Below are positions 24,117 through 39,399 of a stretch of DNA of 64,000 nucleotides, in pieces. This DNA comes from an uncultured delta proteobacterium (GTDB taxonomy: Bacteria; Desulfobacterota; Binatia; UBA9968): assembly GCA_963840855.1 (NCBI GenBank), contig CAWJBB010000069.1, positions 32,001 to 96,000 on the forward strand, written 5' to 3'. Below the pieces are notes generated by a model. It did not search any database and was not told the DNA's origin. It saw nothing but the letters and a program-made list of their open reading frames with translations. Position numbers and translations under genes: made by a program. Each line of letters starts with the position of its first letter. Position 1 is the stretch's first letter.

Positions 24117-24161
24117 TTACTTAATGACTTTATCCGCTCTCGCCAGCACATTCGGTGGAAT
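24117..24161 (-). pseudogene. C-terminal stub of another ABC_sub_bind gene
   Basis: Encodes IPPNVLARADKVIK*. Confidence 0.7.
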
Positions 24162-24435
24162 CGAGGTCTCCCATAACAACTACGGACAAGCAATAGGCTC
24201 GCGGACGGCGAAAGCTCAGACGCCACGGTTTATCTCATAGTCGAGATATCGCGTCAATTGCCGCAGCAACTTAGGCCGCAAGTAGGGTGCCAATCTGCGG
24301 ACATGTAATGATCTGCGAGATTTATCGAACACAGAACGCTTTTCCGAGAAGTCGCTCGAGTTTCGGGTTCAGAAGGACAAGAAAAGGTAGCTTTTGTGTT
24401 TTCCGGCGAAGCAAAAATGCTTCGCTCGGATAGAA

Positions 24436-24484
24436 TGAACTACCCCGCAGCAAGCTGCGGGGAATTAGACCCATAGAGATTAAA
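24436..24484. repeat. REP/IS200-IS605-end-like hairpin element
   Basis: GAACTA-CCCCGCAGC-AA-GCTGCGGGG-AATTAGACCCATAGAGATTAAA. Confidence 0.55.
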
Positions 24485-24611
24485 TAACCCGGTCCCGCGG
24501 CCTTCTTGACGGCCAGAGCTACGCCGTAATAAGGAATTCTGTAGCATCAACGAGCAGTTGATTGGAGAGTCTATCGTAGGCCTGGAACCCTTGATCCTCA
24601 GGAGGTAAAGT

Positions 24612-25751
24612 ATGGATGCCAGCTCTTTCAAAAGAGTTAAATCCGGCTTTTTTCTCGGCTTGTGGTTGCTCGCCACGAGTAGCCTGGCCGCTGACATAAA
24701 TCCCTCCCTGTTGAAGGCCAAAAAAGACGCTGAGGCCAAAGGCTACATCTTTGAAACCAGCCGCGATGCAATTGTCGCTAAGGCCAGAAAGGAAGGCCGA
24801 GTTAAATCGCTCAGCAGCTTAGAGAACGATGTACATCCTCACCTGATAGAAAGTTTCAGGAAAAAATATCCCTTCCTCGCCGTTGAAATGGTCGACATCC
24901 AAGGACCCGATGCCGCCCAGCGCTTCGTGATGGAAATGAAGGCGGGCACTGTCCGCGAGTGGGACATTGCCAATGTCTCAACCGATTTCTATCCGGAGTA
25001 TCCTCCTTTTGCAAAAAAGTTTGACATTCTTGGAATGGCAGAGCACGGGATCCTGAAGATTTCGCCCAAGATGATCGACCCGCAGCATCGCAACTTCGTA
25101 TCTCTTACGACAGGTATCAGCGTGCCGGTTTACAACAAAAATCTCATTTCAGAGGACAAGGTCCCTAACAGGTGGGAGGATTTTCTTAAGCCTGAGTTCA
25201 AGGGAAAAAAATTCCTGGTCGATCTCCGTCCCCATGTCTTCGCGGCTTTTCCCGCATGCCCGAAAGAAGGCCTTGGCCCAGAGTGGACGATGAAGCTAGC
25301 GAGAGGGTTACGCGACCAAGAGCCGGTATGGTTTCGTGGCAACAGCAGGGGCATTAGCGCGATCCAGTCGGGAGAATATTCGCTTCACTTTGCCATCCAC
25401 TACCAGTCGGTCGTAAGAGCGATGCAGAAAGATCGCGCGGGCGCGCTGCAGCTCAAGATCATCGAGCCGGTGCCGGTCCGGGACTCTAGCTTTGAGACGA
25501 TACTGAGCTCGGCCCCGCATCCGTATGCCGCGCTGTTGCTCCTCGAGCATGAGGCCAGTCCTGAGGGACAGAATTTGGTCGATAAGTACTACCCCCAAGT
25601 AGCGTCGGTTCATTCGCCGGGAAGCCACCTGTCCAGGTTGCTCAAAGGTAAAAAGCTTTGCGTCAACGACTTCGAGACTTTTCACAACTCCGCGAAGTGG
25701 ATGGCGCAGGCGGTCGAGGCTTTTGGCTTTCCCAATGCAGAGGGGAAATAG
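24612..25751 (+). CDS. Extracellular solute-binding protein (Fe3+/family 1-6 like)
   Basis: Signal peptide, [31 protein letters not shown]; paralog at 52904-53971. Confidence 0.8.
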
Positions 25752-25759
25752 ATGCGGCT

Positions 25760-25846
25760 CTCGCGCGCATCTCCAACCGCATCAGCAACCATGTCCGCGG
25801 CGTCAACCGCGTCGTCTACGACATCTCCTCGAAGCCACCCGCCACG
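25760..25846 (+). pseudogene. guaA: guaA (GMP synthase) 3'-end fragment
   Basis: Encodes [29 protein letters not shown], the GuaA C-terminus lacking the final IEWE. Confidence 0.85.
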
Positions 25847-26180
25847 GAAGCCAGGACTTTCCTATCACTTGTTCGAGTTTGCGAATTTCTCTAGGTGAGC
25901 GGCGATCACGTTAGCCGCCAATTGATTCCCCGCAATATTCCAGTGTGTAGTCGCGCGCGTCTACGAGCAAACCCGTCTTGTTGGCCTCGCAAATATCCCA
26001 GCAGTTGCTTCCCGGGTTTAGGATTCTGTGATCAGTCATGATTTCAGTAACAATACTGAAGTCGCTGCCTGTTTTCCAGCAAGCGACGATAGCCCGAATC
26101 GTATTATCTCCTCATTGAGAGCGGAGGCCAGCGGAGACGGGGCGTGAGCCGGCACCTATTCCGGAGGCACTCTTTAAAAT

Positions 26181-27146
26181 CTAAGATTTCGAGTCTTTTC
26201 GCTCTGATCTCGTCAGCCGTCGCCGCGTCTTTTGTGGGCACAAGAAGGAAATCGAATGAGCCCCGATTCTAACATCGATGATTTTGGACTGCTTCTTTTT
26301 CTTGCGATCGTCATTTGACCACGGCTTATCATCAATGTGAACCGGAGACCCGTCCCATTCGATTTGTAGATGTCGGCCGCGTTGCACGGTAAGCTTCGCA
26401 TCGACATTCCGTCCACGTATGCAGTGCGTGAGATATCGGCTCAGTTTCTTTTCTTCTCCGTGAACAAGCAGAACGACCTCGAGCAGACCATCGTTGGTGT
26501 CCGCAGTCGGAGCGAGATCCAGGTTTGGACCGACATATCGTATATTCAATGCCTGCAGCAGAATGTAATCGCCCGACAGATCCTCATCATCCAAAAGCAC
26601 CGAAAGTTTCTTCGGAGTGTGTTTTTCTAGCCGTTCCTTTAGAATGGCGAGGACTCTCTCAATTTCGTCGTCGCGGCGAACATCAGCTGCCAGGAGGGGA
26701 TGGTTGCGTTGCTCCAGCTTCAACATTGTCGAGGCAAACAGACCGAATCCAAAACCTTCAATGAAGTAATATGAACCCCATGGCCCATCCACCTCGCCTA
26801 CGTCAAAGTTGACTCGGCGCGCAGAATCCCAGTCGGCAATGAGGGGGTCTAAAGCCCTTCCGGTCAACCCCAAGCTGTGACCGACATTATTGGCGGTGCC
26901 CAGAGGGAGAATCGCAATCGGAGTCGGATTGCCGACCATTCGGCGGGCAACTTTTCCAACGGTGCCGTCTCCGCCGGCAACAGCGATAATATCTGTGGAT
27001 TTCTTCAGCGCCTTTTTCCAATCATTGTCTTTAGAAGAATAATATTTGACCTTATGGCCCGCGGCCTGGATCATATCGGTAATCCGATCACCTGTAGGCT
27101 GTGAGTCGTCACCGGCGGATGGGTTATGAATCAATGTAACTTTAAT
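26181..27146 (-). CDS. Diacylglycerol kinase family lipid kinase (probable ATT or mutated start)
   Basis: HNPSAG, GGDGT, PLGTANN; AAGGAG RBS 10 nt before ATT-AAA-GTT. Confidence 0.8.
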   Translation of the reverse strand: MKVTLIHNPSAGDDSQPTGDRITDMIQAAGHKVKYYSSKDNDWKKALKKSTDIIAVAGGDGTVGKVARRMVGNPTPIAILPLGTANNVGHSLGLTGRALDPLIADWDSARRVNFDVGEVDGPWGSYYFIEGFGFGLFASTMLKLEQRNHPLLAADVRRDDEIERVLAILKERLEKHTPKKLSVLLDDEDLSGDYILLQALNIRYVGPNLDLAPTADTNDGLLEVVLLVHGEEKKLSRYLTHCIRGRNVDAKLTVQRGRHLQIEWDGSPVHIDDKPWSNDDRKKKKQSKIIDVRIGAHSISFLCPQKTRRRLTRSERKDSKS

Positions 27147-27180
27147 TGGTTTGCTTCTCCTTCGTGTACAATTTACCGCT

Positions 27181-27250
27181 AGGATTGAACTGAACGACGC
27201 AACGGACAAATCTCACAGGATTGAATCGTCGGAGAATTCAGTTCAATCCT
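27181..27250. repeat. 70-bp SBP-array palindrome, copy B
   Basis: Perfect 14-bp terminal IR AGGATTGAACTGAA / TTCAGTTCAATCCT. Confidence 0.92.
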
Positions 27251-27275
27251 GGCAGCGCCGCTTGGTTTTCTGCCA

Positions 27276-28265
27276 TCATTTGATCAGCCTATTCGCTCGG
27301 GCGAGCACCTCCGGCGGAATCGTCAAGCCTATCTGCTTTGCCGCTTTGAGATTGATGACGAAATCGAATTTCTTGGGCCGATCCACCGGTATGTCAGCGG
27401 GTTTTGTCCCCTTGAGAATCTTATCCACGATCTCAGCGGCGCGCCGGAGCATCTCTGAACGATCCTCTGAGTAAGTCATCAGTCCACCTGCCTCAACGTA
27501 CCGAACGTTGGGATACACGCCTGGAAGCCGATTCTTTGCCGCTAGCTCTACGATCCGTTTTTGGTGAGAGCTGAGGAACCCGCCGCCGCCGCCCAACATA
27601 AGCGCCTGAGCACGCTTCTTTGTTGCAGCTTGAAATGCCCTTTCGATGTCGTCAGGCCCTTTCACCTCTAAGGATTGGATCCCTAACCGTAAATACCGAG
27701 CCACAGTCTCTGTCTCTTTCATCGCATAGTCCGCCTCTGGATTGGTCGGACTCCAGAGATATCCCACCTGCGAGAGTTTTGGAATTATTTCCTTGAGCAG
27801 TTCAAGCCGTTTTCCGTTTAGTTCGGTGTTAATAGAGGTCAGCCCCGTGATGTTTCCACCGGGGTGTGCGAGGCTCGCGATGATGCCACGCCTTTCGGCA
27901 TCCGCGCCGAATGCCATTACAACGGGGATCGTCTTGATCACTTTTTTAGCAACCTCCGCCGCTTCAGTCCCAGTGGTAACGATAACGTCGCAGTTGAGAC
28001 GGACTAGCTCGGCGGCGAGGTCTGGCAACCGATCAACCTTCCCCTCCGAGAACCGGTACTCGATTGTGAAGTTCTGCTCCTCGACGTAACCGATCTCGCG
28101 TAAACGATCACGAAATGGCTTCACGTAAATTGTTTCAGTAGAAGCATTGCTCGCTCCCAGAAAACATATCCGCGCCACTTTCTTCGGCTGCTGCGCCTCG
28201 GCTATGACTGCAACAGCAAGTAGGATCACTACGAACAGGATTGACAAGACACCAGCTTTTTTCAT
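27276..28265 (-). CDS. ABC_sub_bind substrate-binding protein
   Basis: Signal peptide MKKAGVLSIL..AEAQQ, SLAHPGGNITG, GTKPADIPV. Confidence 0.88.
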   Translation of the reverse strand: MKKAGVLSILFVVILLAVAVIAEAQQPKKVARICFLGASNASTETIYVKPFRDRLREIGYVEEQNFTIEYRFSEGKVDRLPDLAAELVRLNCDVIVTTGTEAAEVAKKVIKTIPVVMAFGADAERRGIIASLAHPGGNITGLTSINTELNGKRLELLKEIIPKLSQVGYLWSPTNPEADYAMKETETVARYLRLGIQSLEVKGPDDIERAFQAATKKRAQALMLGGGGGFLSSHQKRIVELAAKNRLPGVYPNVRYVEAGGLMTYSEDRSEMLRRAAEIVDKILKGTKPADIPVDRPKKFDFVINLKAAKQIGLTIPPEVLARANRLIK

Positions 28266-28370
28266 TGCAGACACCATGTGCGCATTACGCGGAAGGTAGC
28301 AGAGAAAAGTGACATTTACGACAGAAGGCGAAAGGTATTCCGTCGAGTGGAAAAACCAGATTTTTAGCCT

Positions 28371-28440
28371 GAGATTGAACTGAACGACGCAACGGACAAA
28401 TCTCACAGGATTTAGTAGACGGAGAATTCAGTTCAATCCT
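28371..28440. repeat. 70-bp SBP-array palindrome, copy C
   Basis: Near-identical to A and B; the preceding ~40 bp are almost identical to those before copy A. Confidence 0.92.
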
Positions 28441-28466
28441 GGCGTCGCTGTTTGTTTTTCCTGGCA

Positions 28467-29453
28467 TCACTTGATCACTTTATCCGCTCTATACAGTACG
28501 GACTGCGGGATGGTCAGGCCGATCTGCTTGGCAGCTTTAAGATTAATGATGAACTCGAATTTCGTCGGTTGCTCGACTGGGAGATCAGCGGGCTTGGCGC
28601 CTTTCAATATCTTGTCGACATACGTCGCGGCGCGGCGGAACAATTCGGGATAGTTCGTGCCGTAGGTCATGAGTCCGCCGGCGTCGACATATTCCGGCCT
28701 GGCATAGGCCGCCGGCAGCCGATGCTTTGCCGCAAGGTCGACAACTTGTTGGCGCTGGAGATTGAGGATGGGATTCCCCAGCACCAGAAGCGCATGGGCG
28801 CGCCCCTTGGCGGCGGCTCGGACCACCGGCTCAATATCCTTGGGATCTTGGACGTCCAGATATCGAAGATAGATGTCGTAGGATCCGGCGGCGAGTACCG
28901 TCTCTCGTAAAACTTGTGCGTCGCCTGGGTTGGTCGAATTGCCGATGATAGCCACACGCGAAAGTTTGGGAACGATCTCTTTCAGGAGCTCCAGTTGTTT
29001 GCCGCTCATCTCCGGTGCCAGAGCCGCCAATCCAGTGATGTTCCCGCCAGGTTTCGCCAGACTGGCGATGAACCCGTTGCCGACGGGATCGGTATCTTGC
29101 CCCATGACGATCGGTATCGTAGAAGTTGCTTCTTTGAGGACACGGGTTATCGTCGGCCCAGCGGAGACGATGACGTCGACCTTCAGACGCACGAGCTCGG
29201 CGGCAAGTTCATTGCGACGCTCGATTTTTCCTTCTGAAGAGCGCCACTCGATGATGATGTTCTTACCTTCAATGTACCCGATCTCGCGGAGACCTTGGCG
29301 GAAGCCTTCGATGCGAGCGGTCATAGCAGAAGCAGGCGCGTCGAGCTGAAATCCTATACGCGGGACCTTCGCCGACTGCTGCGCCTCGGCTATCAACACA
29401 ACACCGAGCAGCGTCACTGCAACCAAGATTAACGACCAACGAGCTTTGATCAT
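28467..29453 (-). CDS. ABC_sub_bind substrate-binding protein
   Basis: Intact 328 aa with the same family motifs. Confidence 0.9.
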   Translation of the reverse strand: MIKARWSLILVAVTLLGVVLIAEAQQSAKVPRIGFQLDAPASAMTARIEGFRQGLREIGYIEGKNIIIEWRSSEGKIERRNELAAELVRLKVDVIVSAGPTITRVLKEATSTIPIVMGQDTDPVGNGFIASLAKPGGNITGLAALAPEMSGKQLELLKEIVPKLSRVAIIGNSTNPGDAQVLRETVLAAGSYDIYLRYLDVQDPKDIEPVVRAAAKGRAHALLVLGNPILNLQRQQVVDLAAKHRLPAAYARPEYVDAGGLMTYGTNYPELFRRAATYVDKILKGAKPADLPVEQPTKFEFIINLKAAKQIGLTIPQSVLYRADKVIK

Positions 29454-29565
29454 TGCTCACCTCGTTCATGAGCAAACTTATCACGCTCGCGGTAATTGCG
29501 AAAACGATTAGTTACGGCATAAGAAAAACCCGATTTGTCGAGGGGAAAAAAGGCAATTTCGACGC

Positions 29566-29635
29566 AGGATTGAATTGTACGACGCAACGAACAAATCTCA
29601 CAGGATTGTGTCGTCGGAGAAATTAGTTCAATCCT
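29566..29635. repeat. 70-bp SBP-array palindrome, copy D (more diverged)
   Basis: AGGATTGAATTGTACGACGCAACGAACAAATCTCACAGGATTGTGTCGTCGGAGAAATTAGTTCAATCCT. Confidence 0.88.
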
Positions 29636-29811
29636 CGCGGTTCCCGCGTCCTCGCGGCGCTCAAAGCCCACGATAATTATTCGTAGAGTTGTCTACTATT
29701 GGACAGTAATCCTTACCCATTGGCTTATGTTAAGGTTAGGAATTGAATAACGTGATTCGTTGGACGGCGGCCTACCAGATTCGGAAGGCCCAGCCTTTTT
29801 GGAGAAACATG

Positions 29812-30069
29812 ATGGACAGAACATGGTCGGTAGAAATTGAAGGCAAGAAACACCTGATCGAAGTTGACTATGGCAGGAATGCCAGCCAGACCGGCAAACT
29901 ATTGGTCGACGGCAATGAATTGCAGACTTGGAAGAATGCTCAGCATTTGGACGTCCCTCCAGAGATTACTTTCCAGGTCGAAGGCAAACCGGCCGTCTTA
30001 CGCGCAAAGGGGTTTTTTAAACCCAGGATAGATTTCTTTTTTGGAGGGCAATTAATAGAACAAGCTTAA
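29812..30069 (+). CDS. Small hypothetical beta-rich protein
   Basis: GGAGA RBS; RTWSVEIEGKKHLIEV...KLLVDG. Confidence 0.55.
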   Translation: MDRTWSVEIEGKKHLIEVDYGRNASQTGKLLVDGNELQTWKNAQHLDVPPEITFQVEGKPAVLRAKGFFKPRIDFFFGGQLIEQA

Positions 30070-30250
30070 TTCAAAATTAGGCATACCGGAGGGCGAGTTT
30101 TAAAGCCCCTCGACTGCCTTCTTACCGAGTCTATTCAATATACAGATTCTTAACTGTTCGGTACAAAGGATTTAGCAGGGATCAGCAGCAAGAGGCTAGG
30201 GCCTGCAAACGTGCACGCGCGCAGTCTTTAGCTGCGAGAAAGGGGATTAT

Positions 30251-30841
30251 ATGGAGAGAATTCTTTTTCTTCTTTTCATTCTCTATTCGCTTTTTGTTGC
30301 TTCAATTATCTCAGCTGCTGAGAGTCAAACATGGATGATACGACCCGGCGACAATCTTGATATCATTGCGACGACTCTGGAAATTCCCAAAGAAGAAATT
30401 AAAAAACATAATCCCGGGGTTTTGGAGAACAGTCTCCAAATCGGCCAGAAGCTGAAACTGCCGCTTCGCTCATATGTAGAGGTTAAGACGCTGGAAGACG
30501 AACTGGGCAAAAAAGTTGAGCGGATTGGAAAGCTCGAAAGAAAAAGCAGTGATTCTGAGCAAAAAATCGCTAGCGCAGAATCGCAGTTGCGCTGGCATCC
30601 CGTTTGGCTTTGGGGATTCTGGATTTCTTTCGGCATTATTGCATTTATAGTTTCCGGCGCATATTGGATTTTTCGTCAAACGCACCCGCAGGTTTTTGAG
30701 CAACCGCATGACCGGTCCATCAGAGACTTAAGAGAAAGCAAAATACGAGCGCGGTCATCATTTCCGCACGACGAAGAAGGTGCAAGCAGCCGCGGAGGCA
30801 AATGGCAGCCGTCACTGAAGCCGCTTCCCGCACACCGTTAG
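30251..30841 (+). CDS. LysM domain membrane protein
   Basis: IRPGDNLDIIA...HNP...LQIGQKLKLP LysM domain, coiled coil, TM helix. Confidence 0.8.
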   Translation: MERILFLLFILYSLFVASIISAAESQTWMIRPGDNLDIIATTLEIPKEEIKKHNPGVLENSLQIGQKLKLPLRSYVEVKTLEDELGKKVERIGKLERKSSDSEQKIASAESQLRWHPVWLWGFWISFGIIAFIVSGAYWIFRQTHPQVFEQPHDRSIRDLRESKIRARSSFPHDEEGASSRGGKWQPSLKPLPAHR

Positions 30842-30950
30842 CGGAAACAGATGAAGCTCAGGTGCCAAGCCGGCAGTTGGCGCTCCTCTAACGAACGAGC
30901 CCATCGCAACACAGCGGCCTTCATGACGCAGACTGTCAGAAGCAGCGTTA

Positions 30951-30980
30951 GGAATGGATTGATGGAGAATTCAGTTCAAT
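30951..30980. repeat. Right half of the 70-bp palindrome (copy F)
   Basis: GATGGAGAATTCAGTTCAAT. Confidence 0.75.
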
Positions 30981-31007
30981 TAGGGGTCTGTTCTTGGGGA
31001 AAACATA

Positions 31008-31994
31008 TTAGCTTGCCGTGGCGGCTACAATAACACTTGCGCGATTTCCTAATGGCCTACGGTCGACTTGGCGCCAACCACTCGTTTGAAGCCAGTTACG
31101 AACTTCTTCCTCGCTATAAATATCGCCTTCTCCGGTTCGTAGTAGGAAGGCGCCAGCCATCAGCGCAGCGAACATCGGTTCTGTGTGAGTGGAATTAGTC
31201 CAAAAGTCGACGAGTAACAGCGTTGCATCATCTCGCACGTTTTGGCGGAGACGCCGAAGGAGTACAAGATTATGCTCCGGTAAAAGTAAATGCATCACGT
31301 TGGCGATAATGATAACGTCGTTATCCTGCGGAATTGGATCGGTAAAGAAATCGCCTTCCACTACGCTGATCCGATTCGCAATGGTTTGAGGTATCCGTCG
31401 CCGAGCAACAGCGGCAACTTGTGGGCGTTCAAACAAAATTGCTTCCAAATGGCTTGCCTGCCTTAACACCGCGCTGAGGAAGGAGCCCGTCCCTCCTCCG
31501 AGATCTAATACGCGATGATGAGAAGTAAAATCATACGTAGCAGCAAGCGCATTCGCAGCCTCCACTGTGAATGATTCTACCCCTTCTGAATAAATTCGTT
31601 GCTCTTCTTCTGTGAGTTTGAGATCCTTGAACACGGGCTTGCCCGTCCGGACTGCTTCTTCTAGTTTCATCCACATGGAATAATTCAGCCGGTCCAAGTA
31701 CCGCAAGAGTGGCCGCAAATCTTCGTTGCCACGGCCGCTCAAGAAACTGAGCGCCGCCGCGCTATTGTGGTATCGCCCGCCGTGATTTTCCACAAAGCCT
31801 AACGCAACCATGGCATCAGTCAGTATTCGCATCGTTCGACCTGGCATCCCGATGCGTTGCGTTAGTTCATCCAAGGTAGCCGGACTATCAGCCAGCTGCT
31901 CAAATATCCCTACCTCATTAGCGACGAATAGGAGTTTGGACGCCATGAATCCGCAGCCAACCTGAAATATCGTGTCGGGTTTTACGTCGTTCAT
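31008..31994 (-). CDS. O-methyltransferase (family 2, with dimerisation domain)
   Basis: LDLGGGTG, GDFF, NVMH motifs. Confidence 0.88.
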   Translation of the reverse strand: MNDVKPDTIFQVGCGFMASKLLFVANEVGIFEQLADSPATLDELTQRIGMPGRTMRILTDAMVALGFVENHGGRYHNSAAALSFLSGRGNEDLRPLLRYLDRLNYSMWMKLEEAVRTGKPVFKDLKLTEEEQRIYSEGVESFTVEAANALAATYDFTSHHRVLDLGGGTGSFLSAVLRQASHLEAILFERPQVAAVARRRIPQTIANRISVVEGDFFTDPIPQDNDVIIIANVMHLLLPEHNLVLLRRLRQNVRDDATLLLVDFWTNSTHTEPMFAALMAGAFLLRTGEGDIYSEEEVRNWLQTSGWRQVDRRPLGNRASVIVAATAS

Positions 31995-32108
31995 GGATCG
32001 CTCCTTCCACGAATTCTAAACAGCTTCAGCTAGGAGTATATTCAACGATCGATATGGCCCGGAGCCTAATTCGATTTCGGGCAACCGTCAAGATTTATCA
32101 TTTACGCT

Positions 32109-32128
32109 AGGATTGAACTGAACGACGC
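32109..32128. repeat. Left half of the 70-bp palindrome (copy G)
   Basis: AGGATTGAACTGAACGACGC, preceded by TTTACGCT like copy B (TTTACCGCT). Confidence 0.78.
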
Positions 32129-32341
32129 GTCAAACCAATCCCAAACAACGTAATGTATTGGCGGCCAAGGTGCCGGAATCACATGAAAATCCCAGCCTTA
32201 GGAGGTAGAGACTAGCGTCACTTTGGAAGCGAGACCGTGAGCACCAAAAATGGTCTATCTATTCGCGCCGTAATAAGGTCTTTTTCCTTGCGCGATGAAC
32301 TACCGGAATTAGGTGCACAGGTGTTGGAAATGATCGGCAGC

Positions 32342-33391
32342 CTAGTTTGCCGAGCGTGGCTCATCAAGAAATAACTGTACTTCGCGAAAAAGATGGATGC
32401 GATTCTTCTCCAGGAAAACTACGTGAGTGCCCTCCCCGATTTGAACAAGACGTTTATAGTGGGTGTTGCTGAGTTTGCCGAAGACCGCCTGCGCCCCTGT
32501 GACCGGGGTAACGTCATCCCACTCTGCGAGCACAATTAAGGTAGGTGCCTTAATTTCGGATGGCTCCCATAGAGGCTTCCCGGCAAACCAGTACTCCTGA
32601 GTATCTTGGACAGTGCCGTTTGGAGTGCGCACAACCGGCGGTGTCTGCTTGGCGCCGACTGGGTCGGTGGCAAGTGTGGCCGCAGACCACGCTTCGAACC
32701 AAGCTGCCGGCATCAAGTCTTTTTTCTTTTCTTCCGGCGCGCCAGTTTGAAGACGGCTCCTCGCTTGCTCCATCGTCCATGCTTGATATGCGCCAAGCCT
32801 TGCGGGGCTACCGCTCGCCGGCGCCTTGCGTATCCAGCCCGGTGCATAGAGCACCAGACGATTGACTTTGTCGCTGTTTTGCGTGGCGTATCGGCCCATG
32901 ATCGCGGTACCCCAAGACCAGCCCATTAAATTGAGTTTGGTCACGCCTCGACGGACCAGGATATGATCAACAGCTGCCCCTACGTCCCTAACTGCAACAT
33001 CGGTTCTGACGATGGGTGGATTGTCAGCGGCCGGCTTTTCCATCTCTAGGGGGCGCGTGGAACGACCGTAGCCCCGCAAATCAACCAGATAAACATCGTA
33101 GCCGCGGCGTGCGATGTAATCCATCCACGAGAAACCATCCAAAGGCAAATCGAATGTACTGCTCGCTGCCTGTGTGGTACCGTGCACATAGAGCAGCGTC
33201 TTCTCCCCGCTGAATTGGGCCATGCCTTCGGGGCGCTTATTCCTGACATACAGTTGAATGCCAGGGTCATGCGATTGAATCATATAGCTCTCTGTAACGA
33301 GCTTGAGTTCTGCTTGAGAGGTGATTCCGGCGCAGCCCATCAACACCAAGAACGAGAGGATGCTGACCCGATTCCATTCTGAATAGATCAT
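32342..33391 (-). CDS. Alpha/beta hydrolase, probably exported (gene cassette)
   Basis: HG, DLRGYGRS, GWSWG nucleophile, GTH; starts just after an attC. Confidence 0.85.
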   Translation of the reverse strand: MIYSEWNRVSILSFLVLMGCAGITSQAELKLVTESYMIQSHDPGIQLYVRNKRPEGMAQFSGEKTLLYVHGTTQAASSTFDLPLDGFSWMDYIARRGYDVYLVDLRGYGRSTRPLEMEKPAADNPPIVRTDVAVRDVGAAVDHILVRRGVTKLNLMGWSWGTAIMGRYATQNSDKVNRLVLYAPGWIRKAPASGSPARLGAYQAWTMEQARSRLQTGAPEEKKKDLMPAAWFEAWSAATLATDPVGAKQTPPVVRTPNGTVQDTQEYWFAGKPLWEPSEIKAPTLIVLAEWDDVTPVTGAQAVFGKLSNTHYKRLVQIGEGTHVVFLEKNRIHLFREVQLFLDEPRSAN

Positions 33392-33424
33392 ATGCTCCTC
33401 CTATAGCTCACCATCCATACTGCG

Positions 33425-33497
33425 GCCCAACCGCACATGTTGACCGGCCGCGGCGAGCGAATGCGAGCCAGAGGACCGGTCGAGCGTGGAGTTGGGC
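33425..33497 (-). mobile_element. Integron attC site
   Basis: Minus strand GCCCAAC-TCCAC-GCTCGACCGG...GCTCGCATTCGCTCGCCGCGG-CCGGTCAAC...GTTGGGC; complementary R''/R' and paired L boxes. Confidence 0.78.
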
Positions 33498-33527
33498 GAT
33501 ACGGTGCGCCTGGCTGATGCGTGCTCC

Positions 33528-34679
33528 CTATTCCGATTCGGCACACGACCACTCAAAGAGATTGTCGTACACCAGTCCCCAAGGCGGCCGCAGAAAGCCG
33601 AGCGCACGAACATCTTCGTACCAGTAGCCGAACGGTGAGGATCGCGAGAACGTCCCTCCACCGATCACCCGACAAATCCGCCCCGTGGCAGACTCCGCCA
33701 ATTCTGCGATAGCCGTTTTCGCCTGCGCCGCCCGGCGCCGCCCTTCGTTCCCCTCCTCGACGGCGCGGAGCATGCCGTCGTACGCTTGCTCAATCAACCA
33801 GCCTTCCATCTCGGCTCTCGACCATTCGACCCGCTCGTAGGCGCGCAAAGTATCGCGCCGCCTGACCATGTGCTGGCGCGCCGACGTGACTGCGGTCTCG
33901 ACGACTCCAACGATGACCGAAGCGAAAGCACATTGGATGAATCCGCCGGTGGCTTCTATCCTTTTCAGAAGGTTCCCCGGGTGGGCACTACGCTGGCCAG
34001 GGAAGTTCGCGAACGCCATCGCGTGACTCTGAGTGGCTACCATTCCATGACCATCCCAGGGTGCTGTTAGAGTCACCCCCGTTGTGCCGTCCCAGGGCAC
34101 GCCCCGCATATCGAGGAAGAACAAGTCGGGGGTTGTCTCTCCCTCTGGGAGAGCCGTCGTGATCATATAGGAGGTTATCCCGGAACCGCTCCCGAACTGC
34201 TTCTGGCCGGTGATCAGATAACGGCCGTCGCTGCCCGCAGGGCGCGCAGTCGCCTTCGTCTTCGCCATGTCGCCACCACTACCAGGCTCTGATGTGATGG
34301 TTCCCCACCAGGCGCCTTCTCTCACCGTTTGGAAAATCTCAGAGCGTTGCGCGACCCATGCCTCCTGAGATGGCGGAGGCACTTCCGGTGAGGTCAGCCA
34401 TACAGCGAGGACCGACGGGTGCATCGCACAAACAAGCGCAACGGAAGGATCCCCGTGCGCCAGAATTCGCAGCGTTTCGCAAACGGGACGTGTCGAACGG
34501 CGCAGGTCCTGCCAGACACCGCCCTCCTCGACCGGGACGCCGGTGAGGAGAAACCCGGCATCCCGCAGCGACGCGAAGTCAGCAGTGACCAATGCGCGCC
34601 GTTGCTGGCGCTCAGTGCGCTCGGCGGCAAAGCGGGACGATATGTCCCCCAGATTCTTGAGGACGGTATGGATGTCCAT
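33528..34679 (-). CDS. Acyl-CoA dehydrogenase family protein (gene cassette)
   Basis: ITSEPGSGGD, GQKQFGSGSG, GG.TF; AGGAGG RBS; bounded by attC sites. Confidence 0.85.
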   Translation of the reverse strand: MDIHTVLKNLGDISSRFAAERTERQQRRALVTADFASLRDAGFLLTGVPVEEGGVWQDLRRSTRPVCETLRILAHGDPSVALVCAMHPSVLAVWLTSPEVPPPSQEAWVAQRSEIFQTVREGAWWGTITSEPGSGGDMAKTKATARPAGSDGRYLITGQKQFGSGSGITSYMITTALPEGETTPDLFFLDMRGVPWDGTTGVTLTAPWDGHGMVATQSHAMAFANFPGQRSAHPGNLLKRIEATGGFIQCAFASVIVGVVETAVTSARQHMVRRRDTLRAYERVEWSRAEMEGWLIEQAYDGMLRAVEEGNEGRRRAAQAKTAIAELAESATGRICRVIGGGTFSRSSPFGYWYEDVRALGFLRPPWGLVYDNLFEWSCAESE

Positions 34680-34715
34680 CGCTTCCCTCCTTGCCAATAA
34701 CTCGTCGGTCAAGTC

Positions 34716-34773
34716 GCCTAACGTACCGCTCAGCCGGCGCTTTTAGTGATCGGTCTGAAGCGAAAAGTTAGGC
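34716..34773 (-). mobile_element. Integron attC site (58 bp)
   Basis: Minus strand GCCTAAC-TTTTC-GCT[T]CAG[A]CCG...CGGCTGAGC-GGTAC-GTTAGGC with two extrahelical bases. Confidence 0.85.
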
Positions 34774-34797
34774 AATTCAAAGTCGAGCAATAACCCT

Positions 34798-35841
34798 TCA
34801 CGTTCGTTGTCTGATGTAGCGCAATACACCAAGGTCACCAGCCCGTGAAGAAGCGCGGAACATATCCGCCGCCTCTTTAGCGAACATAACATCAACGTCA
34901 GCCTTCTCCCGCGTCAAGCCCTGCTCGTAAATATAACGTGCTAATGTTTCCAGCGCCGAGCGATTAGCCTCAACTCCATAGGCGAAAGGGTCTTTCCCGA
35001 AGAAGCGGAAGTTTTCCTCGAGATGCCAGTGAAGCCAAGGCAGGGATGTTTGGTATACGCTCGGATCACCAAGATTTTGATAACAATGCCTCTTGGCGTC
35101 TTCAAACGCCTTCATGAGACTTGCGGCGATCCACTGGTTGTGATCGTAGATGTCTCGCTTGATGGCGATCGTATGCATAATTGGAAAGATTCCAGTTTTC
35201 TTGTAATAGGCCATTTCCACATCTCGATAATTCGGGAAAAGACGGTACACATTGGGAGAGCCGTTCAAAAAAGAGGATGGCGCCAGGGAGGTAATCATTG
35301 CATCCAGCTCGCCGGCTTCAAGCATTCCATTGATTGTTTTACCAGGCGGGATTTCTTGAAGATGGATTCTGGGAGGAAGGTTTAGTTCTACTCGTTCAAC
35401 CGGATCTGGAGCTTCAATCCCGCCTCGGTACCAGGATACTTTCGTCAGATCAACACCATACTCATCCTGCAAGATTCCCCGTGCCCAAACTGCAGCGGTC
35501 TGTGAATACTCTGGTCCGCCGACCTTTTTTCCTTCGAGGTCTTTAGGCTCCCGGATTCCTGAGCGCGCATTGATGTAGATGTCCGCATGCCGGAAAACTT
35601 TGGAGGGGAAAACAGGGATAGCAATGTACGGTTTCGGAATGCGTTCGCGTGTGGTGACGTAACCTGAAGTTGAAATCTCAGTTACGTCAAATTCCGAGTG
35701 ATGGAGCACCCGCCAGAATGTTTCCCAAGGCTTCAGTTGAACGTAATTGAGCTCGATCCCTTCAGGTTGAACTGTGCCATCGATCAACGCAGCAGTGCGG
35801 TCGTAATAACGGAGCGCCATGTTGAGGCGTAGTTTAGACAT
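34798..35841 (-). CDS. 4,5-dihydroxyphthalate decarboxylase-like / SBP-fold protein (gene cassette)
   Basis: YDRTAALIDGTV.PEG, PVFPSKVFRH, Y.QTAAVWARG, GIFPIMH. Confidence 0.8.
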   Translation of the reverse strand: MSKLRLNMALRYYDRTAALIDGTVQPEGIELNYVQLKPWETFWRVLHHSEFDVTEISTSGYVTTRERIPKPYIAIPVFPSKVFRHADIYINARSGIREPKDLEGKKVGGPEYSQTAAVWARGILQDEYGVDLTKVSWYRGGIEAPDPVERVELNLPPRIHLQEIPPGKTINGMLEAGELDAMITSLAPSSFLNGSPNVYRLFPNYRDVEMAYYKKTGIFPIMHTIAIKRDIYDHNQWIAASLMKAFEDAKRHCYQNLGDPSVYQTSLPWLHWHLEENFRFFGKDPFAYGVEANRSALETLARYIYEQGLTREKADVDVMFAKEAADMFRASSRAGDLGVLRYIRQRT

Positions 35842-35912
35842 ACACGCCTCCTACTGTTTTCAGGGTAACTCGAGGAAATGTCCGGCGAGGCATTTCCTTA
35901 AATGAATATTTC

Positions 35913-35978
35913 GCCTAACTATTAGGTGAGCCGCCATAGGCAGCGACAAAGGCCGGTCGGCTCATCTCCGGCGACGGC
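35913..35978 (-). mobile_element. Degenerate attC site
   Basis: Minus strand GATGAGCCGACC...GGCGGCTCACC-TAATA-GTTAGGC; R' intact, R'' decayed. Confidence 0.55.
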
Positions 35979-36126
35979 CTCGACAATGAAATCCAAATCG
36001 GCTGCAATATCCACCAGCTACCCCAATTTGTCAACGTTTCGTTTCCCGACAAAAGCCGCCAGGGCGGCGGGTTATCTCCCTAACGAACGGCCGCTTATCG
36101 CGGCCAGACCATCGCAAAGTTCCCGC

Positions 36127-36196
36127 AGGATTGAACTGAACGACGCAACGGACAAATCTCACAGGATTGAGTCGATGGAGAATTCAGTTCAATCCT
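36127..36196. repeat. 70-bp SBP-array palindrome, copy E
   Basis: Perfect 14-bp terminal IR, near-identical to B. Confidence 0.92.
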
Positions 36197-36220
36197 GGCA
36201 TCGCAGCTTGGTTTTCTGCA

Positions 36221-37201
36221 TCACTTGAGCACTTTATCCGCCCGCGCCAGCACGTTCGGCGGAATCGTGAGACCGATTTGCTTCGCCGTCTTGAGATTGA
36301 TCACCAACTCGAACTTCATCGGCTGCTCCACGGGCAGGTCGGCGGGCTTCGTTCCTTTTAGGATCTTGTCGACATATCGAGCGCCGTCTCGGCCCTCGGT
36401 ACCGTAACCGGGTCCGTAGGACATCAGGCAACCATTGTCCACATAATCTCCCCGAGCGCATATCACCGGCAACCGATTGTGGATCGCAAGGTCCGCGATC
36501 AGTTTTTGGTTAGAATTGGCCAACGGGTTCAGCGTCACGGCGAGAGCGGCGCTACGCGCCTTAATTGCCTCTTTGAACGCATCCGGGTATTTGTCGGCAC
36601 TGTTTACCTCCATAGAATAAAGTTGCAGACCCAGTTCCCGTGCCGGCAGTAGGCTTTCTTTCCATTGTGGTGCAGAGCCTGGAGCCTGGGGATCCCACAG
36701 GACCGCAACTCGGGAAAGCTTTGGAACGGTTTCCTTAAGCAGCTCCAGTCGTTTGCCAGTCAAAATCGCCGCAATGTTGGTGATTCCCGTGCTGTTTCCT
36801 CCAGGTCGCGCCAAGCTTTCGACCAGCCCTGCCACAACAGGATCAGTCACACCCATAAAAACGATGGGAATCGTCTTAGTAGCGTTCTTGGCAGCTAGAG
36901 CAGCATTGGTTGTGACCGCCACGAGTACGTCAATCTTTAGATGCACCAGCTCGGAGGCAAGGTCGGGAAGCCGATCGAACTTGCTCCGCATATCGGGAAT
37001 CAATGGCGATGTTCTGTCCCTCAATATAGCCGAGATCACGCAGACCTTGCCGAATGCCTCCAGACGGGGCGCGTCAGCGGAAGCGGAGACAGCCGCCAAA
37101 TAACCTACTCGCGGGACTTTCTTGGGCTGCTGCGCCGTGGCGGGAAAGCTAAACGCAAAGAGCATGGCGCAAAGAGCAAGGACGGTGATTTTTCTCTTCA
37201 T
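36221..37201 (-). CDS. ABC_sub_bind substrate-binding protein (compensating frameshifts about 36985-37052)
   Basis: The segment GKVCVISAILRDRTSPLIPDMRS reads RQGLRDLGYIEGQNIAIDSRYAE in another frame. Confidence 0.8.
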   Translation of the reverse strand: MKRKITVLALCAMLFAFSFPATAQQPKKVPRVGYLAAVSASADAPRLEAFGKVCVISAILRDRTSPLIPDMRSKFDRLPDLASELVHLKIDVLVAVTTNAALAAKNATKTIPIVFMGVTDPVVAGLVESLARPGGNSTGITNIAAILTGKRLELLKETVPKLSRVAVLWDPQAPGSAPQWKESLLPARELGLQLYSMEVNSADKYPDAFKEAIKARSAALAVTLNPLANSNQKLIADLAIHNRLPVICARGDYVDNGCLMSYGPGYGTEGRDGARYVDKILKGTKPADLPVEQPMKFELVINLKTAKQIGLTIPPNVLARADKVLK

Positions 37202-37368
37202 ATTTTTCTTTGCCTCTCGTCACTCGTCACATGACACTCGTCCCCCTCACCTTATTGCGCACCTCGTTTCGTGCGTTACTTATCACGCGGATAGCGATAA
37301 AGGAAAGTGTGATTTGCGGGCGGAAGCGGACAGGTATTAGTCTGAGTAGGAAAGGCCGGATTTCTCCT

Positions 37369-37381
37369 AAGATTGAACTGA
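37369..37381. repeat. Truncated left end of the 70-bp palindrome (copy H)
   Basis: AAGATTGAACTGA, at the same position as copy A relative to a near-identical SBP leader. Confidence 0.6.
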
Positions 37382-37444
37382 CGCTTCTGTGGAATCCAGG
37401 TCCCAAATATTTGTGATCTCGGATTCAATGGGAGATGGGTAGAT

Positions 37445-39399
37445 TTATTTCGGACGCTGGATGCGCAGCGCCCTGATGCGGGAGTTGAGCGTCGAAGGAT
37501 TCATGCCGAGCAGCGCGGCGGCGCCGTCTTTGCCGGCCACGCGCCACGCTGTGGATTCCAGGGCACGCAGGATATTCTCGCGCTCTAACTGTTGCAGGTC
37601 GCGAATTCGAAGAATGCGGTTTGAAGCCTCCGGCGTCGTCTCTTCTGCTGGCCGCCTTTCAGGAATTGTCTGACCGCCGGCATCCGGTAGAGCGCGGTCG
37701 AGATTGAGACGGCCGTCCCGAGAAGTAATGACCGCGCGCTCGATGACGTTTTGCAACTCGCGCACGTTGCCCGGCCATGAATAAGCCATGAGCCGTCGCT
37801 TGTATTCGTCGGATAACGGTTCGATCTTCCGTCCCAACCGTTGGGCGAACTTGGCGGCGAAAGCGGAGGCGAGCAGAATGACATCATCGCTCCGCTTCCT
37901 CAAGGGCGGCACTTCGATGGGAAAAACGTTCAACCGATAATACAGGTCTTCTCTGAACGCTCCGTCTCTTACGGCTTGGCCGAGATCTCGATTCGTCGCG
38001 GCCATCACGCGAACGTCCACTTTATTCGTATGTGAACTGCCGACGGGCGCGATTTCGCCCTCCTGCAAGACGCGCAGTAGTTTAGCTTGTAAATCAAGGG
38101 ACAATTCGGCAATCTCGTCGAGAAAAATCGTCCCATGATCCGCCAGCGCGAAGCGTCCCTCACGTTTTTGAGTCGCTCCTGTAAAAGCGCCCTTTTCATG
38201 TCCGAAAAATTCGCTCTCCATAAGCGCAGCCGGGATCGCCGCACAGTTGATCGTGATGAGCGGCTTGTCGCGCCGGCGGCTGGCCCCATGGATCGCCCGA
38301 GCGATCAGCTCTTTTCCCGTGCCGGTCTCGCCGAGAATCAGAACCGTCGCGTCAGTGACCGCGACTTGCTCGACGTCTTCCAAGACACGCTTCAGCGCAT
38401 CGCTCTGTCCGAGAATTTCGTCAAACCCGCGGAGGCTTTTGATCTCCTCCCGCAGATACGCCGCTTCCGCCGCCAGCGAATGAATTTTGCGGTCGGCTTC
38501 GAGTCTATCATTGATGTTTCTCAGGATAACGGAGTAGAAGCTCCGCCGCTCAATCTCAAAATGCGACAAGGTCGCCTCGGCTGGAAACTCCTTCCCGCCT
38601 ACGGGCAAGGCTTGAAGCCCGCCTGGAATCCATAAGGACCGGCGTCCTGGGGTGCCGGCGCCAAGTTCGTGAATTAGGGTCGTGAGTTTCCTCCGACTTT
38701 CCTCAGAGAGAAGCGTGCTGAAACTTTCACCCATCACCTGTTGGGCCTCGCAATGAAAGGCTTGCTCCGCGGCGGGATTCATCCGGGTCACCTTCAGGCT
38801 CTCATCGAATTCGATGACGGCATCCATGGCGCTGTCGAACAGCCCGCGTAGTTTTTCTTCGCGCTCCCGAACTTGTTTCTCGGCCCGCAGTCTTTGCATT
38901 TCGGCGGTCGCGCGAGCGGCAAAAATATTGAAAAGCGCAAGCACCCGCGGCTCTTCTGGCATGGGCCGTCGATCGATCACCGCCAAGTGCCCTAAAATTC
39001 TGCCGTCAACGTCCTTTAAAGGCATTCCCATGTAGCTGACGGCGCCGACGTCTTTAATGTCCGGATCATCGGGGTACAGTTCGAGCAAATTGTCAGGGAA
39101 ATGGACAAAGATTGGCCGTGTCGATGACTTGCTCGCACGGTGTTCCGGCGATATCGATCTCGTAATTTTGGATCCATTGCCCGTCCATCCAAAAGGCAAG
39201 CGCCCGAAGCCGGCGGACTTTCTTGGATATACTCCGTGACCCAAGCGCCATGGGTATTCAGCGCTCTGGCCAGATTTTCAACGAGGGCTGCAAAAAAGCG
39301 CTCCCCCGTCTCCTTCGCCGTTCCTTCGAGGATGCTTCGCAGCGCAACTCCTTCATCGAGTCCGCCAAGGGGAAGCGTTATCGGGTGCGTGTCGGGCAT
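37445..39399 (-). CDS. sigma54 enhancer-binding protein, GAF-PAS-AAA-HTH (FhlA-like); two +1 frameshifts near 39107-39215
   Basis: GETGTGKE, GAFTGA, HTH; removing one C and one T in homopolymers restores ...VTEYIQESRRLRALAFWMDG...GTPCEQVI...VHFP. Confidence 0.85.

Follow-up and report, generated by a model that had tools for sequence, protein, structure and literature searches.

A candidate REP/BIME-like extragenic repeat around an O-methyltransferase gene in the substrate-binding protein arrays of an uncultured delta proteobacterium

An O-methyltransferase (MT) gene of an uncultured delta proteobacterium is flanked by two halves, F and G, of a repeat that otherwise accompanies genes for ABC substrate-binding proteins (SBPs). 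The repeat is best read as an undescribed REP/BIME-like sequence that marks recombination joints rather than the borders of gene cassettes, and the balance tips slightly towards F and G being degenerate single modules of such a modular extragenic repeat, spread across this bacterial family. The initial annotation had taken the MT gene as the best argument for a cassette system. This was not supported, as fixed geometry around non-SBP genes, a recombinase and element halves beside MT orthologues were all lacking. The features discussed lie in the window, the whole stretch of 64,000 nucleotides that was analysed, and are collected in Table 1.

Table 1. Positions in the window of the MT gene, the repeat copies and the segments around them
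Feature	Position	Strand	Remarks
O-methyltransferase (MT) gene	31008-31994	-	328 aa; PF00891 + PF08100
F, degenerate R module (box 1 + decayed box 2)	30950-30983	-	24 nt past MT stop
G, L module without R partner	32105-32147	-	box 3 at 32109-32122; 114 nt before MT start
Promoter-like TTGACG-N17-TAGGCT	32063-32091	-	pattern match only; starts 18 nt after box 3
LysM gene segment, convergent on F	30251-30858	+	93% identical to other-genus genome; 45-47% GC
Copy A, full	22948-23021	-	R+L
Copy B, full R+L	27177-27250	-	25 nt past an SBP stop
Copy C, full	28367-28440	-	between two SBP genes
Copy D, full	29562-29635	-	upstream of SBP 28467-29453
Copy E, full	36123-36196	-	after SBP 36221-37201
H, box-3 remnant	37361-37381	-	leader of SBP 36221-37201, directly after sigma-54 activator gene
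Hydrolase + acyl-CoA dehydrogenase segment	32111-34462		99.96% identical to contig C85; ends inside box 3 of G
Continuation of the duplicate	35074-36376		96.3% identity; ends in conserved 3' part of SBP gene

Read in gene sense, the R module of the repeat is a 34-nt palindrome composed of box 1 (AGGATTGAACTGAA), a loop and box 2 (TCAATCCT), and the 36-nt L module terminates in box 3 (TTCAGTTCAATCCT), which is complementary to box 1. Boxes 1 and 3 form 14-bp inverted repeats around each unit and are subterminal relative to the L...R units. Searches of the genome with nhmmer returned 83 non-overlapping matches on 15 contigs, bringing the total with F to about 84 copies (52 full R+L, 20 R-only, 9 L-only and 3 partial). 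All 84 are found between open reading frames (ORFs) and cluster in SBP arrays, and their orientation is strictly that of the genes and uniform within each contig. The 20 R-only copies stand at the end of an array, after its last SBP; every one of them stops within a few nucleotides of box 2, after which 20 different sequences begin, with the end at profile positions 47-52 in 15 of 19. Such sharp ends could also mark the true end of the element.

The element was found in 12 of 31 related genomes, this one included, at 76-92% identity. These were concentrated in the same family (10 of 18 genomes), with 1 of 5 and 0 of 7 in two sister families. An exact 21-nt match was present on 14 contigs, 7 of which were labelled Binatia or delta proteobacterium; labels on the other 7 were Pyrinomonadaceae or Blastocatellia (five), plus Acidimicrobiia, Dokdonella and Verrucomicrobia. 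A literature search for this repeat, or for repeats in SBP arrays of this lineage, returned nothing, and the sole match to the box motifs was an unrelated LAMP primer.

The MT gene, the ATG of which is preceded by the Shine-Dalgarno sequence GGAAGGAG, is indeed bracketed by a right half (F) and a left half (G) oriented as in the SBP units. Over 30950-30980, 27 of 31 positions of F agree with the R half, and F has an exact 20-mer in common with copy E; its nhmmer E value was 0.088 genome-wide and 1.8e-5 in a 1.5-kb region, and its folding is lost (dG -2.6, z +0.49). G is 85% identical to the L half over 32105-32143 (nhmmer E = 5e-4). The annotated spacing was also reproduced, with 24 nt between stop and element and 114 nt between start and G (SBP starts lie 72-113 nt away), as was the projected F-G period of 1195 bp, equal to that of C-D. 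Likeness to the SBP units is limited to 31 nt in F, matched by the SBP-trailer profile, and 43 nt in G, matched by the leader profile; around MT, no remains of spacer, leader or SBP coding sequence align beyond these stretches. The ORFs of MT and the neighbouring SBP are both 328 aa.

Evidence from sequencing runs consisted of assembled contigs only, metatranscriptomes included. A single 5358-bp contig from an independent run (X3) covers positions 30800-36158 with 38 differences, and the F-MT-G arrangement is therefore no assembly artefact. Contig joints with one short side, e.g. 29549 to 32108 (side 21), probably come from paralogous loci. Contigs from an RNA library fell on MT at 31329-31479 and 31760-31938 and may be DNA carry-over. 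In run X3, the summed contig word-depth was 122-148 over the LysM segment versus 9-11 over MT.

The slot geometry ascribed to the element did not extend to non-SBP genes other than MT. Of 29 SBP genes in this genome with an element downstream, 25 stop 11-27 nt from R, and MT was the only one of 40 non-SBP ORFs upstream of an R-bearing copy to stop at 24-27 nt. As non-SBP stop distances span 6-689 nt, the chance of one such case at 24-27 nt is about 0.2. Such spacing was likewise absent from all 12 non-SBP ORFs in loci of relatives and all 6 in a distant genus, and non-SBP genes show no fixed spacing genome-wide on the stop side, the outcome that the initial annotation had named as speaking against its reading. 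The lipid kinase was said to start 34 nt from copy B, which requires a non-canonical ATT at 27146; the first canonical in-frame start past the element is a TTG at 27134, 46 nt from box 3. What stands of the proposal that the element delimits general cargo is that it flanks non-SBP genes and sits at mosaic joints; fixed geometry and capture do not. In this genome, two full copies enclose a UbiE-like methyltransferase, and multi-GAF kinases, a GFA-family protein and BenE are among the other non-SBP neighbours; a hydrolase, a lipocalin, an aquaporin and a TIR protein are among those in genus g22. Modules in genome G047 flank unrelated genes at 29-459 nt. The combined match of MT to the SBP units (24 nt, 114 nt and the ORF length of the neighbouring SBP) is incompletely explained.

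Orthologues of MT were identified in four other genera at 53-63% identity, and none of the four carries element halves. One genome (G071) has the gene order SBP, MT paralogue, MT, SBP-like gene. In genus g26, MT adjoins a PF04392 SBP and the same SBP-like gene with no element there, which argues that MT is an old resident and not captured cargo. When the genome contigs were searched with MT for related loci, no relative was found. An empty site of the MT region was sought in four same-genus genomes and in G018; no counterpart of MT, F or G was present, and the matches were confined to the LysM segment, the segment 29657-30095 and short conserved stretches elsewhere.

Recombination joints are strongly enriched at the element. 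Among the ends of recently duplicated segments, at least 93% identical, 18 of 80 fall within 30 nt of a copy versus 2.8% expected, an eight-fold excess. The gene-proximal edge of G is demonstrably one such joint; the 99.96% identical duplicate shared between this contig (C69) and C85 halts there, in the final bases of box 3. The gene that follows the duplicate on C85 is an SBP interrupted by an insertion sequence (IS), and C85 lacks the 612 bp between the two duplicate segments. The lipid-kinase segment has a 99% identical duplicate whose end is 4 nt from copy B, and a segment 91% identical to a same-genus genome begins about 20 nt beside copy D. The duplicate ends vary in position: they coincide with the end of box 3, fall 4-29 nt beyond the element or lie within the 3' end of an SBP gene. 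Breakpoints in leaders are variable too; in 19 of 61 L copies, homology breaks off no more than about 20 nt past box 3. One box 3 is interrupted, next to GTTC, by an IS91-like element that encodes an integrase and a Y2 transposase, and a 98.8% identical empty site was found elsewhere; of the 13 Y2_Tnp matches, 4 are no further than about 250 nt from a copy of the repeat. These Y2/IS91-like elements use the repeat as a target and do not share its ends. L and R were also considered as the ori and ter ends of an IS91 derivative with a rolling-circle origin, which was rejected since the 20 sequences that follow R-only copies lack the GTTC/CTTG target signature.

With 85-95% identity, the roughly 80 copies act as homology patches for ectopic recombination, hence the position of the repeat at the joints of mosaic segments; it also serves as a target of an IS91-like element. 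Copy number would have grown mostly passively, as units built as L - leader - SBP - 25-nt spacer - R were duplicated in tandem. MT would be an old SBP neighbour that now sits between two worn joints, and its SBP-like spacing and 1195-bp period would be coincidence. The element itself may be transcribed with its flanking genes and serve, as a hairpin or a protein-bound site, to modulate mRNA stability or expression; for such a REP/BIME-like role, the arguments fall just short of evenly balanced. A terminator-like canonical hairpin at 36070-36056 comes after copy E, so this copy probably lies within the SBP transcript.

In three full copies, R+L folds as a long hairpin (dG -26.5 to -36.1 kcal/mol, z -2.6 to -5.7), and R alone reached a dG of -13.1 with z -3.9. 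No compensatory change was seen between boxes 1 and 3, where 78.2% of positions were paired versus 78.7% in shuffles (403 of 500 as high), and a selected RNA structure is therefore not demonstrated. Covariation between boxes 1 and 2 was marginal (13 of 500 shuffles), RNAalifold gave no consensus structure for the 52 full copies, and no Rfam family matched positions 20000-40000 at E<=1. The sequence conservation by itself suits a protein-binding site at least as well as an RNA structure.

Conservation of sequence without covariation also favours another explanation, in which a regulator binds the AGGATTGA / TCAATCCT boxes, arrayed just upstream of promoters, and the element serves as a DNA operator or upstream activating site. 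The copies would then mark a regulon of SBPs, kinases, MT and others, with G as the MT control region and F as a relic. Although unlikely, this explanation accounts for several observations. The element is conserved across genera at the identities given above, copies precede histidine-kinase/response-regulator operons and SBP arrays, and the L module is always accompanied by the conserved 150-nt SBP leader, 59 of 61 leader matches beginning in L. In four copies here and at one G003 locus, box 3 is followed after 17-18 nt by a promoter-like TTGAC-N17/18-TAnnnT; the sequence that follows each copy differs, and annotated ORFs (MT, GFA and BenE) follow three of the four here. Most aligned leaders have a fourth TCAATCCT box some 25 nt inside the SBP coding sequence; it is present in 8 of 10 L-bearing SBPs versus 5 of 32 others, all of them related genes and not independent cases. 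Against an operator, no DNA-binding regulator is consistently adjacent, and inspection of the canonical SBP leader by eye revealed no convincing sigma-70 or sigma-54 promoter. A promoter pattern scan returned 11 sites versus 9.4 expected, none recurrent at elements. In addition, the 20 R-only copies stand after the last SBP, where no gene needs control, and many downstream genes are 280-420 nt from the element.

It is distinctly unlikely that the L...R units are non-autonomous mobile cassettes (cf. mobile insertion cassettes, or REPIN-like), cut at the R/L junction and moved in trans, with G-MT-F as a non-SBP passenger. The 14-bp inverted repeats of boxes 3 and 1 around the units, the loss of homology within about 20 nt of box 3 in 19 of 61 L copies, the non-SBP genes between copies, the enrichment of duplicate joints and the agreement of the MT unit with the SBP unit in length and spacing would all fit such movement, but the duplicate ends lie at differing places, the spacing of non-SBP genes is variable and the MT orthologues are devoid of the ends. 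The sharp R-only ends beside 20 different sequences fit it as well, but are equally expected if constrained sequence alone survives between old paralogues. Other than the IS for which it is a target, the element has no associated transposase or recombinase; none accompanies the arrays either, which are headed by kinases, response regulators or a sigma-54 activator. None of 10 Y1_Tnp (PF01797) matches lay near an element match, and the 3 kb around the Y1_Tnp genes contained one match to box 13-mers, the chance level. Target-site duplications were not visible among the 52 aligned copies, and the flanks of the copies are themselves conserved. We give an equally low rating to R and L being the ends of gene-sized units block-exchanged between arrays, by recombination-driven or trans-mobilised cassette shuffling at the R/L seam without a resident recombinase and again with G-MT-F as a non-SBP passenger; IS91-like rolling-circle elements homing to box 3 could supply the mobilising activity.

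That two former SBP units were deleted and left F and G as meaningless debris, the element being unrelated to rearrangement, is very improbable. F is degenerate and unfolded, G is without an R partner, and spacing agreement would arise by chance about once in five, all as expected of debris; the spacer, leader and SBP coding remains also expected of it are, however, absent from the alignment, the edge of G is a recombination joint, and the eight-fold joint enrichment at elements stands against it.

An integron-like system, with the element as an attC-type site and the SBP and MT units as integron cassettes, would fit the co-oriented gene-sized units, the imperfect palindrome near each stop codon and the true integron integrase encoded by the genome, but is refuted for practical purposes, since this only such integrase (TIGR02249, 442 bits, cut-off 265; C1:45987-46880) is on a contig that yielded no element match at E<=10 and one chance-level 13-mer, no integrase heads the arrays, the units own their conserved leaders and the element is broken into halves around its centre rather than at a G/TT core. 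Integron attC sites carry a GTTRRRY / RYYYAAC pair; read by eye, the element copies contain no conserved pair of this kind, and a GTCTAAC-like string was seen in the loop of only a subset of copies. Integron cassettes are promoterless and mostly unrelated to one another, whereas the cargo here is mainly PF04392 paralogues.

Among known systems, REP/BIME sequences of enterobacteria are short, modular, hairpin-forming extragenic palindromes. They typically follow genes closely within operons, the classical case being genes for periplasmic binding proteins, and they serve as join-points of duplications and targets of IS. The element described here is likewise a modular extragenic palindrome with a hairpin, lying downstream of SBPs, at duplication joints and in IS targets. 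Unlike REP/BIME, its sequence is unrelated, its stem is AT-richer and its 14-bp arms surround a 42-nt centre. Also counted against a REP/BIME-like assignment were the copy number (about 84, few for a REP family) with clustering in arrays of one SBP family, the strict co-orientation with genes, unlike most REPs, and the lack of a linked REP-associated transposase (RAYT). MITEs, such as the Correia elements of Neisseria, and mobile insertion cassettes, such as MIC231, are bounded by inverted repeats and are intergenic and gene-sized, respectively. Like them, the element is small and intergenic, with inverted repeats, proximity to gene starts and promoter-like sequence at one end, and gene-sized units are bounded by inverted ends; it differs in having no target-site duplication or cognate transposase, conserved flanks and a fixed orientation. 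REPINs (PMC3337134, PMC3116915) consist of two inverted REPs mobilised by RAYT, form hairpins, leave singlets as remnants and persist vertically. The two inverted arms and spacer that form a hairpin here, and the lone arms, are similar, whereas 0 of 10 Y1 transposase genes are flanked by boxes and most copies are explained by co-duplication with SBPs, not transposition. Reuse of promoters in prokaryotes (PMC3575422) places highly similar upstream sequence before non-homologous genes; the box 3 plus TTGAC-N17-TAGGCT class, which precedes different downstream sequences, resembles this. It departs from reused promoters in that what is shared here is a palindromic repeat found after genes as well, and the promoter is a predicted one.

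If the REP/BIME-like reading is right, an uncultured soil lineage would own a REP/BIME-like repeat that accompanies its orphan ABC substrate-binding proteins, a greatly expanded family, and shapes the rearrangement of their arrays, with duplications, gene replacements and IS insertions concentrated at the repeat. The repeat would be of use as an annotation marker for these genomes and as a handle on the growth of SBP arrays, and it cautions that regular spacing in tandem arrays can mimic a cassette system. Only if block exchange were shown would it be a new class of mobile element; block exchange, if true, would give this lineage a new means of assembling and reshuffling large transporter-receptor gene arrays.

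A profile built on the five full copies (A to E) of a ~70-nt intergenic element in the window was searched against the assembly that contains the window as part of contig C69 (7.1 Mb, 93 contigs, 56% GC), with E ≤ 0.01 and overlaps removed. This search returned 83 non-overlapping copies plus F, the right half that follows the stop of the O-methyltransferase gene (MT), across 15 contigs, and all copies of any given contig share one orientation. The element is modular, being composed of a right module (R) and a left module (L), and the census comprises 52 full copies, 19 with R only (20 with F), 9 with L only, and 3 partial copies. Among the R-only copies, 15 of 19 begin at profile positions 47–52, which is exactly the R|L seam, and 20 different sequences follow them. 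The copies in the window are listed with the surrounding genes, all of which lie on one strand except that for the LysM protein.

Genes and element copies in the window around the O-methyltransferase gene
Feature	Position	Strand	Remarks
Element, full copies A to E (~70 nt)	starts 22948, 27177, 28367, 29562, 36123		
DAGK/YegS-type lipid kinase	26181–27209	−	
PF04392 ABC SBP	27276–28406	−	
PF04392 ABC SBP	28467–29453	−	
LysM protein	30251–30841	+	
F, right half of element	30950–30980		27/31 positions match R half, including an exact 20-mer
MT, O-methyltransferase	31008–31994	−	328 aa; PF00891 + PF08100
G, left half of element	32105–32143		85% identity to L half
Alpha/beta hydrolase	32342–33391	−	
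Acyl-CoA dehydrogenase	33528–34712	−	
SBP-like protein	34798–35841	−	
PF04392 ABC SBP	36221–37201	−	
Sigma-54 activator	37445–39244	−	

In gene sense, R consists of box 1 (AGGATTGAACTGAA), an 18-nt loop, and box 2 (TCAATCCT), and L consists of GTGAGATTTGTCCGTTGCGTCG and, after it, box 3 (TTCAGTTCAATCCT), which complements box 1. A long hairpin is predicted for full copies (−26.5 to −36.1 kcal/mol, z −2.6 to −5.7), and a fold of −13.1 is predicted for the R module by itself; F has no predicted fold (−2.6, z +0.49). Across the 52 full copies, box 1:box 3 pairing was 78.2%, compared with 78.7% with shuffled partners, indicating no compensatory evolution, covariation between boxes 1 and 2 was marginal, and neither RNAalifold nor Rfam returned anything for the element. 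Both arms are therefore kept as sequence rather than as structure. That the element is an operator is unlikely, but this reading keeps an appreciable share of the probability. A fourth TCAATCCT box occurs ~25 nt past the start codon, where the signal peptide is encoded, in most aligned genes for PF04392 ABC substrate-binding proteins (SBPs) that are linked to an element (e.g. window ~28230). It was found in 8 of 10 L-bearing SBP ORFs versus 5 of 32 other SBP ORFs, the genes being related to each other, and gives only a hint of a motif constrained at the nucleotide level.

Both modules are tied to SBP genes. Of 133 matches to the SBP 3′ end, 56 extend into R and about 70 have no R and finish at the stop codon, and 59 of 61 matches to a strongly conserved 150-nt SBP leader begin in L. 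Thirty of these leader matches reach the SBP start, 19 lose homology within ~20 nt past box 3, and the others stop at scattered places. With R linked to the SBP 3′ end and L to the SBP leader, the tandem array has the form (L–leader–SBP–25-nt spacer–R)n, in which a full element is the R|L seam that joins its units. Over their final ~150 nt (e.g. window 36221–36376), dozens of PF04392 SBP paralogues share 75–86% DNA identity, including those of arrays without the element, the remainder of each gene being ~65–70% identical; gene conversion or a strongly constrained C terminus could account for this similarity. Two giant histidine kinases elsewhere in the genome (C85:93744–99683, 1979 aa, 10 GAF domains; C41:191309–194224, 971 aa, 4 GAF domains) each have a full element ~300 nt ahead; after each come a response regulator with a single domain, a further element, and an SBP array. 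The DNA of their GAF repeats matches many places in this genome and its relatives.

The initial annotation had placed MT in an SBP-like slot and proposed that the element delimits or captures general cargo as a cassette system. Its distances were reproduced: the MT stop is 24 nt from where F is projected to end, the start codon is 114 nt from the left half before MT (G), and the projected F–G period is 1195 bp, equal to that of C–D because MT and the neighboring SBP are both 328 aa. The MT start codon has a good Shine–Dalgarno sequence, and the arrangement is not an assembly artifact, since a single 5358-bp contig from an independent public run spans 30800–36158 with 38 differences. Stop-side spacing was examined genome-wide: for every copy that contains R, the closest upstream ORF in the same orientation was taken, counting ORFs of 100 aa or more up to 700 nt away. 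Of 29 SBPs upstream of R, 25 end 11–27 nt from box 1 and 19 at 24–27 nt; the stops of 40 non-SBP ORFs lie 6–689 nt away, with MT alone at 24–27 nt, and the chance of one such stop falling there given this spread is ~0.2. The 23 loci examined in relatives and public MAGs have SBP stops 4–26 nt from R and 12 non-SBP ORFs at 9–963 nt, none of them at 24–27 nt. On the start side, SBPs begin 72–113 nt past box 3, and 21 non-SBP ORFs (≥180 aa) begin 34–420 nt from it, in loose groups at 93–126 nt (6 ORFs) and 283–312 nt (6 ORFs) whose loci are partly paralogous. In a near-complete genome of another genus (G047), R and L modules flank genes for an alpha/beta hydrolase, a lipocalin-like protein, an aquaporin, a TIR-domain protein, a PhoX-like protein, and an unknown ORF at distances of 29–459 nt, and no PF04392 SBP was detected by profile near these modules. 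The element does flank non-SBP genes, as had been claimed, but the fixed geometry claimed for them does not hold.

The flanks of MT match those of SBPs only within the modules. A profile that spans the SBP trailer, from the 3′ coding end through the spacer and R, aligns over only 31 nt, corresponding to F, and an L-plus-leader profile over only 43 nt, corresponding to G; neither the SBP spacer nor the leader aligns. Past box 3, G falls in a small class with C85_119608, C75_17021, C85_115310, and one locus of a related genome (G003), in which a predicted promoter-like pattern, TTGAC-N17/18-TAnnnT, begins 17–18 nt past box 3. The sequences downstream are unrelated and contain annotated ORFs in three of the four copies of this genome (MT, a GFA-family protein, and BenE). 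Orthologues of MT with 53–63% identity were found in four other genera (genomes G005, G007, G071, and G009, unpublished) and in none of four same-genus genomes. No match to the element accompanies any of the four orthologues in the DNA covered (only ~100 nt upstream in G005, otherwise 1.3 to 8 kb per side); the element is present elsewhere in G005 and G007, and there is hardly any in G071. In G071, MT is flanked on one side by a PF04392 SBP and an MT paralogue and on the other by a homologue, at 44% identity, of the SBP-like gene in the window, a neighborhood that points to MT as a long-standing resident of SBP neighborhoods rather than recently captured cargo. A variant in which blocks are exchanged is improbable and keeps what probability it has because the R|L seam is sharp and the triple coincidence at MT is unexplained. 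The cassette system as originally proposed is unsupported, given the variable spacing of non-SBP genes and the MT orthologues without halves.

Element copies are enriched at the joints of duplicated segments. Window 32111–34462 is 99.96% identical to contig C85, and 35074–36376 is 96.3% identical to the adjoining C85 stretch. This identity ends in G, at the final bases of its box 3, past which C85 has a canonical SBP leader and an SBP interrupted by a 2.7-kb insertion sequence (IS), whereas the window has MT; the opposite end of the duplicate lies within the conserved 3′ part of an SBP gene. The interrupting sequence is one copy of a 2.69-kb IS present at C85:105125–107814 and six further places (at least 7 copies, 99–100% identity). 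In the window, the duplicated segment with the lipid kinase (99% identical to C50) stops 4 nt from copy B; on C50 it stops 29 nt from an L-only copy. All four ends of a 647-bp segment common to C46 and C50 lie inside elements, as does the start of a 3.2-kb segment common to C46 and C75, and the 684 bp between two full copies on C50 recur on C58 without any element, with homology ending 9 nt from the element. Among non-IS segments (≥93% identity, ≥250 bp), 80 distinct ends were counted, of which 18 are no more than 30 nt from an element compared with 2.8% expected (nominal binomial 1e-11), reciprocal ends being counted separately, such that these correspond to about nine independent events. The joints differ in position: some coincide with the end of box 3, some fall a few to 29 nt beyond the element, and others lie within the SBP 3′ end. 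This variability fits ectopic homologous recombination among dispersed repeats better than cleavage at a specific site.

Next to copy D, a segment with 91% identity to a same-genus genome (29657–30095) begins ~20 nt from the element. The LysM segment beside F (30251–30858) shares 93 and 89% identity with two loci in a genome from another genus (G018), has 45–47% GC, and shows a summed contig word-depth of 122–148 in public run X3 versus 9–11 for MT. Both segments look like recently exchanged DNA. The sequence beyond F has therefore been replaced, and this accounts for the loss of its L partner by F.

None of the 10 matches to Y1 (RAYT-type) transposases in the genome is near an element. A true integron integrase is encoded at C1:45987–46880 (TIGR02249, 442 bits, cut-off 265), with further tyrosine-recombinase fragments nearby, and contig C1 contains no element. 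The tyrosine recombinase beside copy C35_34658 is part of an IS91-like element (integrase and Y2 transposase, ~2.4 kb; C35:32235–34640) inserted within box 3, abutting GTTC. The empty site is seen in the uninterrupted paralogous C85_117033 (C85:117033–117157), which is 98.8% identical to the far flank of the insertion. The repeat serves this IS as a target, and the IS does not carry the repeat's ends. Of the 13 Y2_Tnp matches, 4 are no more than ~250 nt from an element, and in G047 an R copy has a similar integrase nearby. This pattern suggests homing of the IS to the repeat.

The element was found in 12 of 31 related genomes, including the present one, at 76–92% identity: by family, the count is 10 of 18 in its own, 1 of 5 in one sister family, and 0 of 7 in a second. 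An exact 21-nt pattern also matched 14 public contigs, 7 labeled Binatia or delta proteobacterium and 7 with other labels, of which five are Pyrinomonadaceae or Blastocatellia and one each is Acidimicrobiia, Dokdonella, and Verrucomicrobia. Several of the 14 carry the same SBP arrays, and arrays of SBPs plus element occur on MAG contigs labeled Pyrinomonadaceae or Blastocatellia (L044, L047, L049, L050, L055, and others); these other labels reflect either mis-binned contigs or spread beyond the lineage. No publication describing this repeat was found in a literature search.

By comparison with the properties of REP/BIME, attC, Correia, MIC, and IS91 sequences, F and G are genuine but degraded single modules, and the extragenic repeat to which they belong is modular, REP/BIME-like, and previously undescribed. 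Such a repeat would have multiplied passively, along with the tandem duplication of SBP units, with joints arising through homologous recombination, and it may act on transcripts or bind protein.
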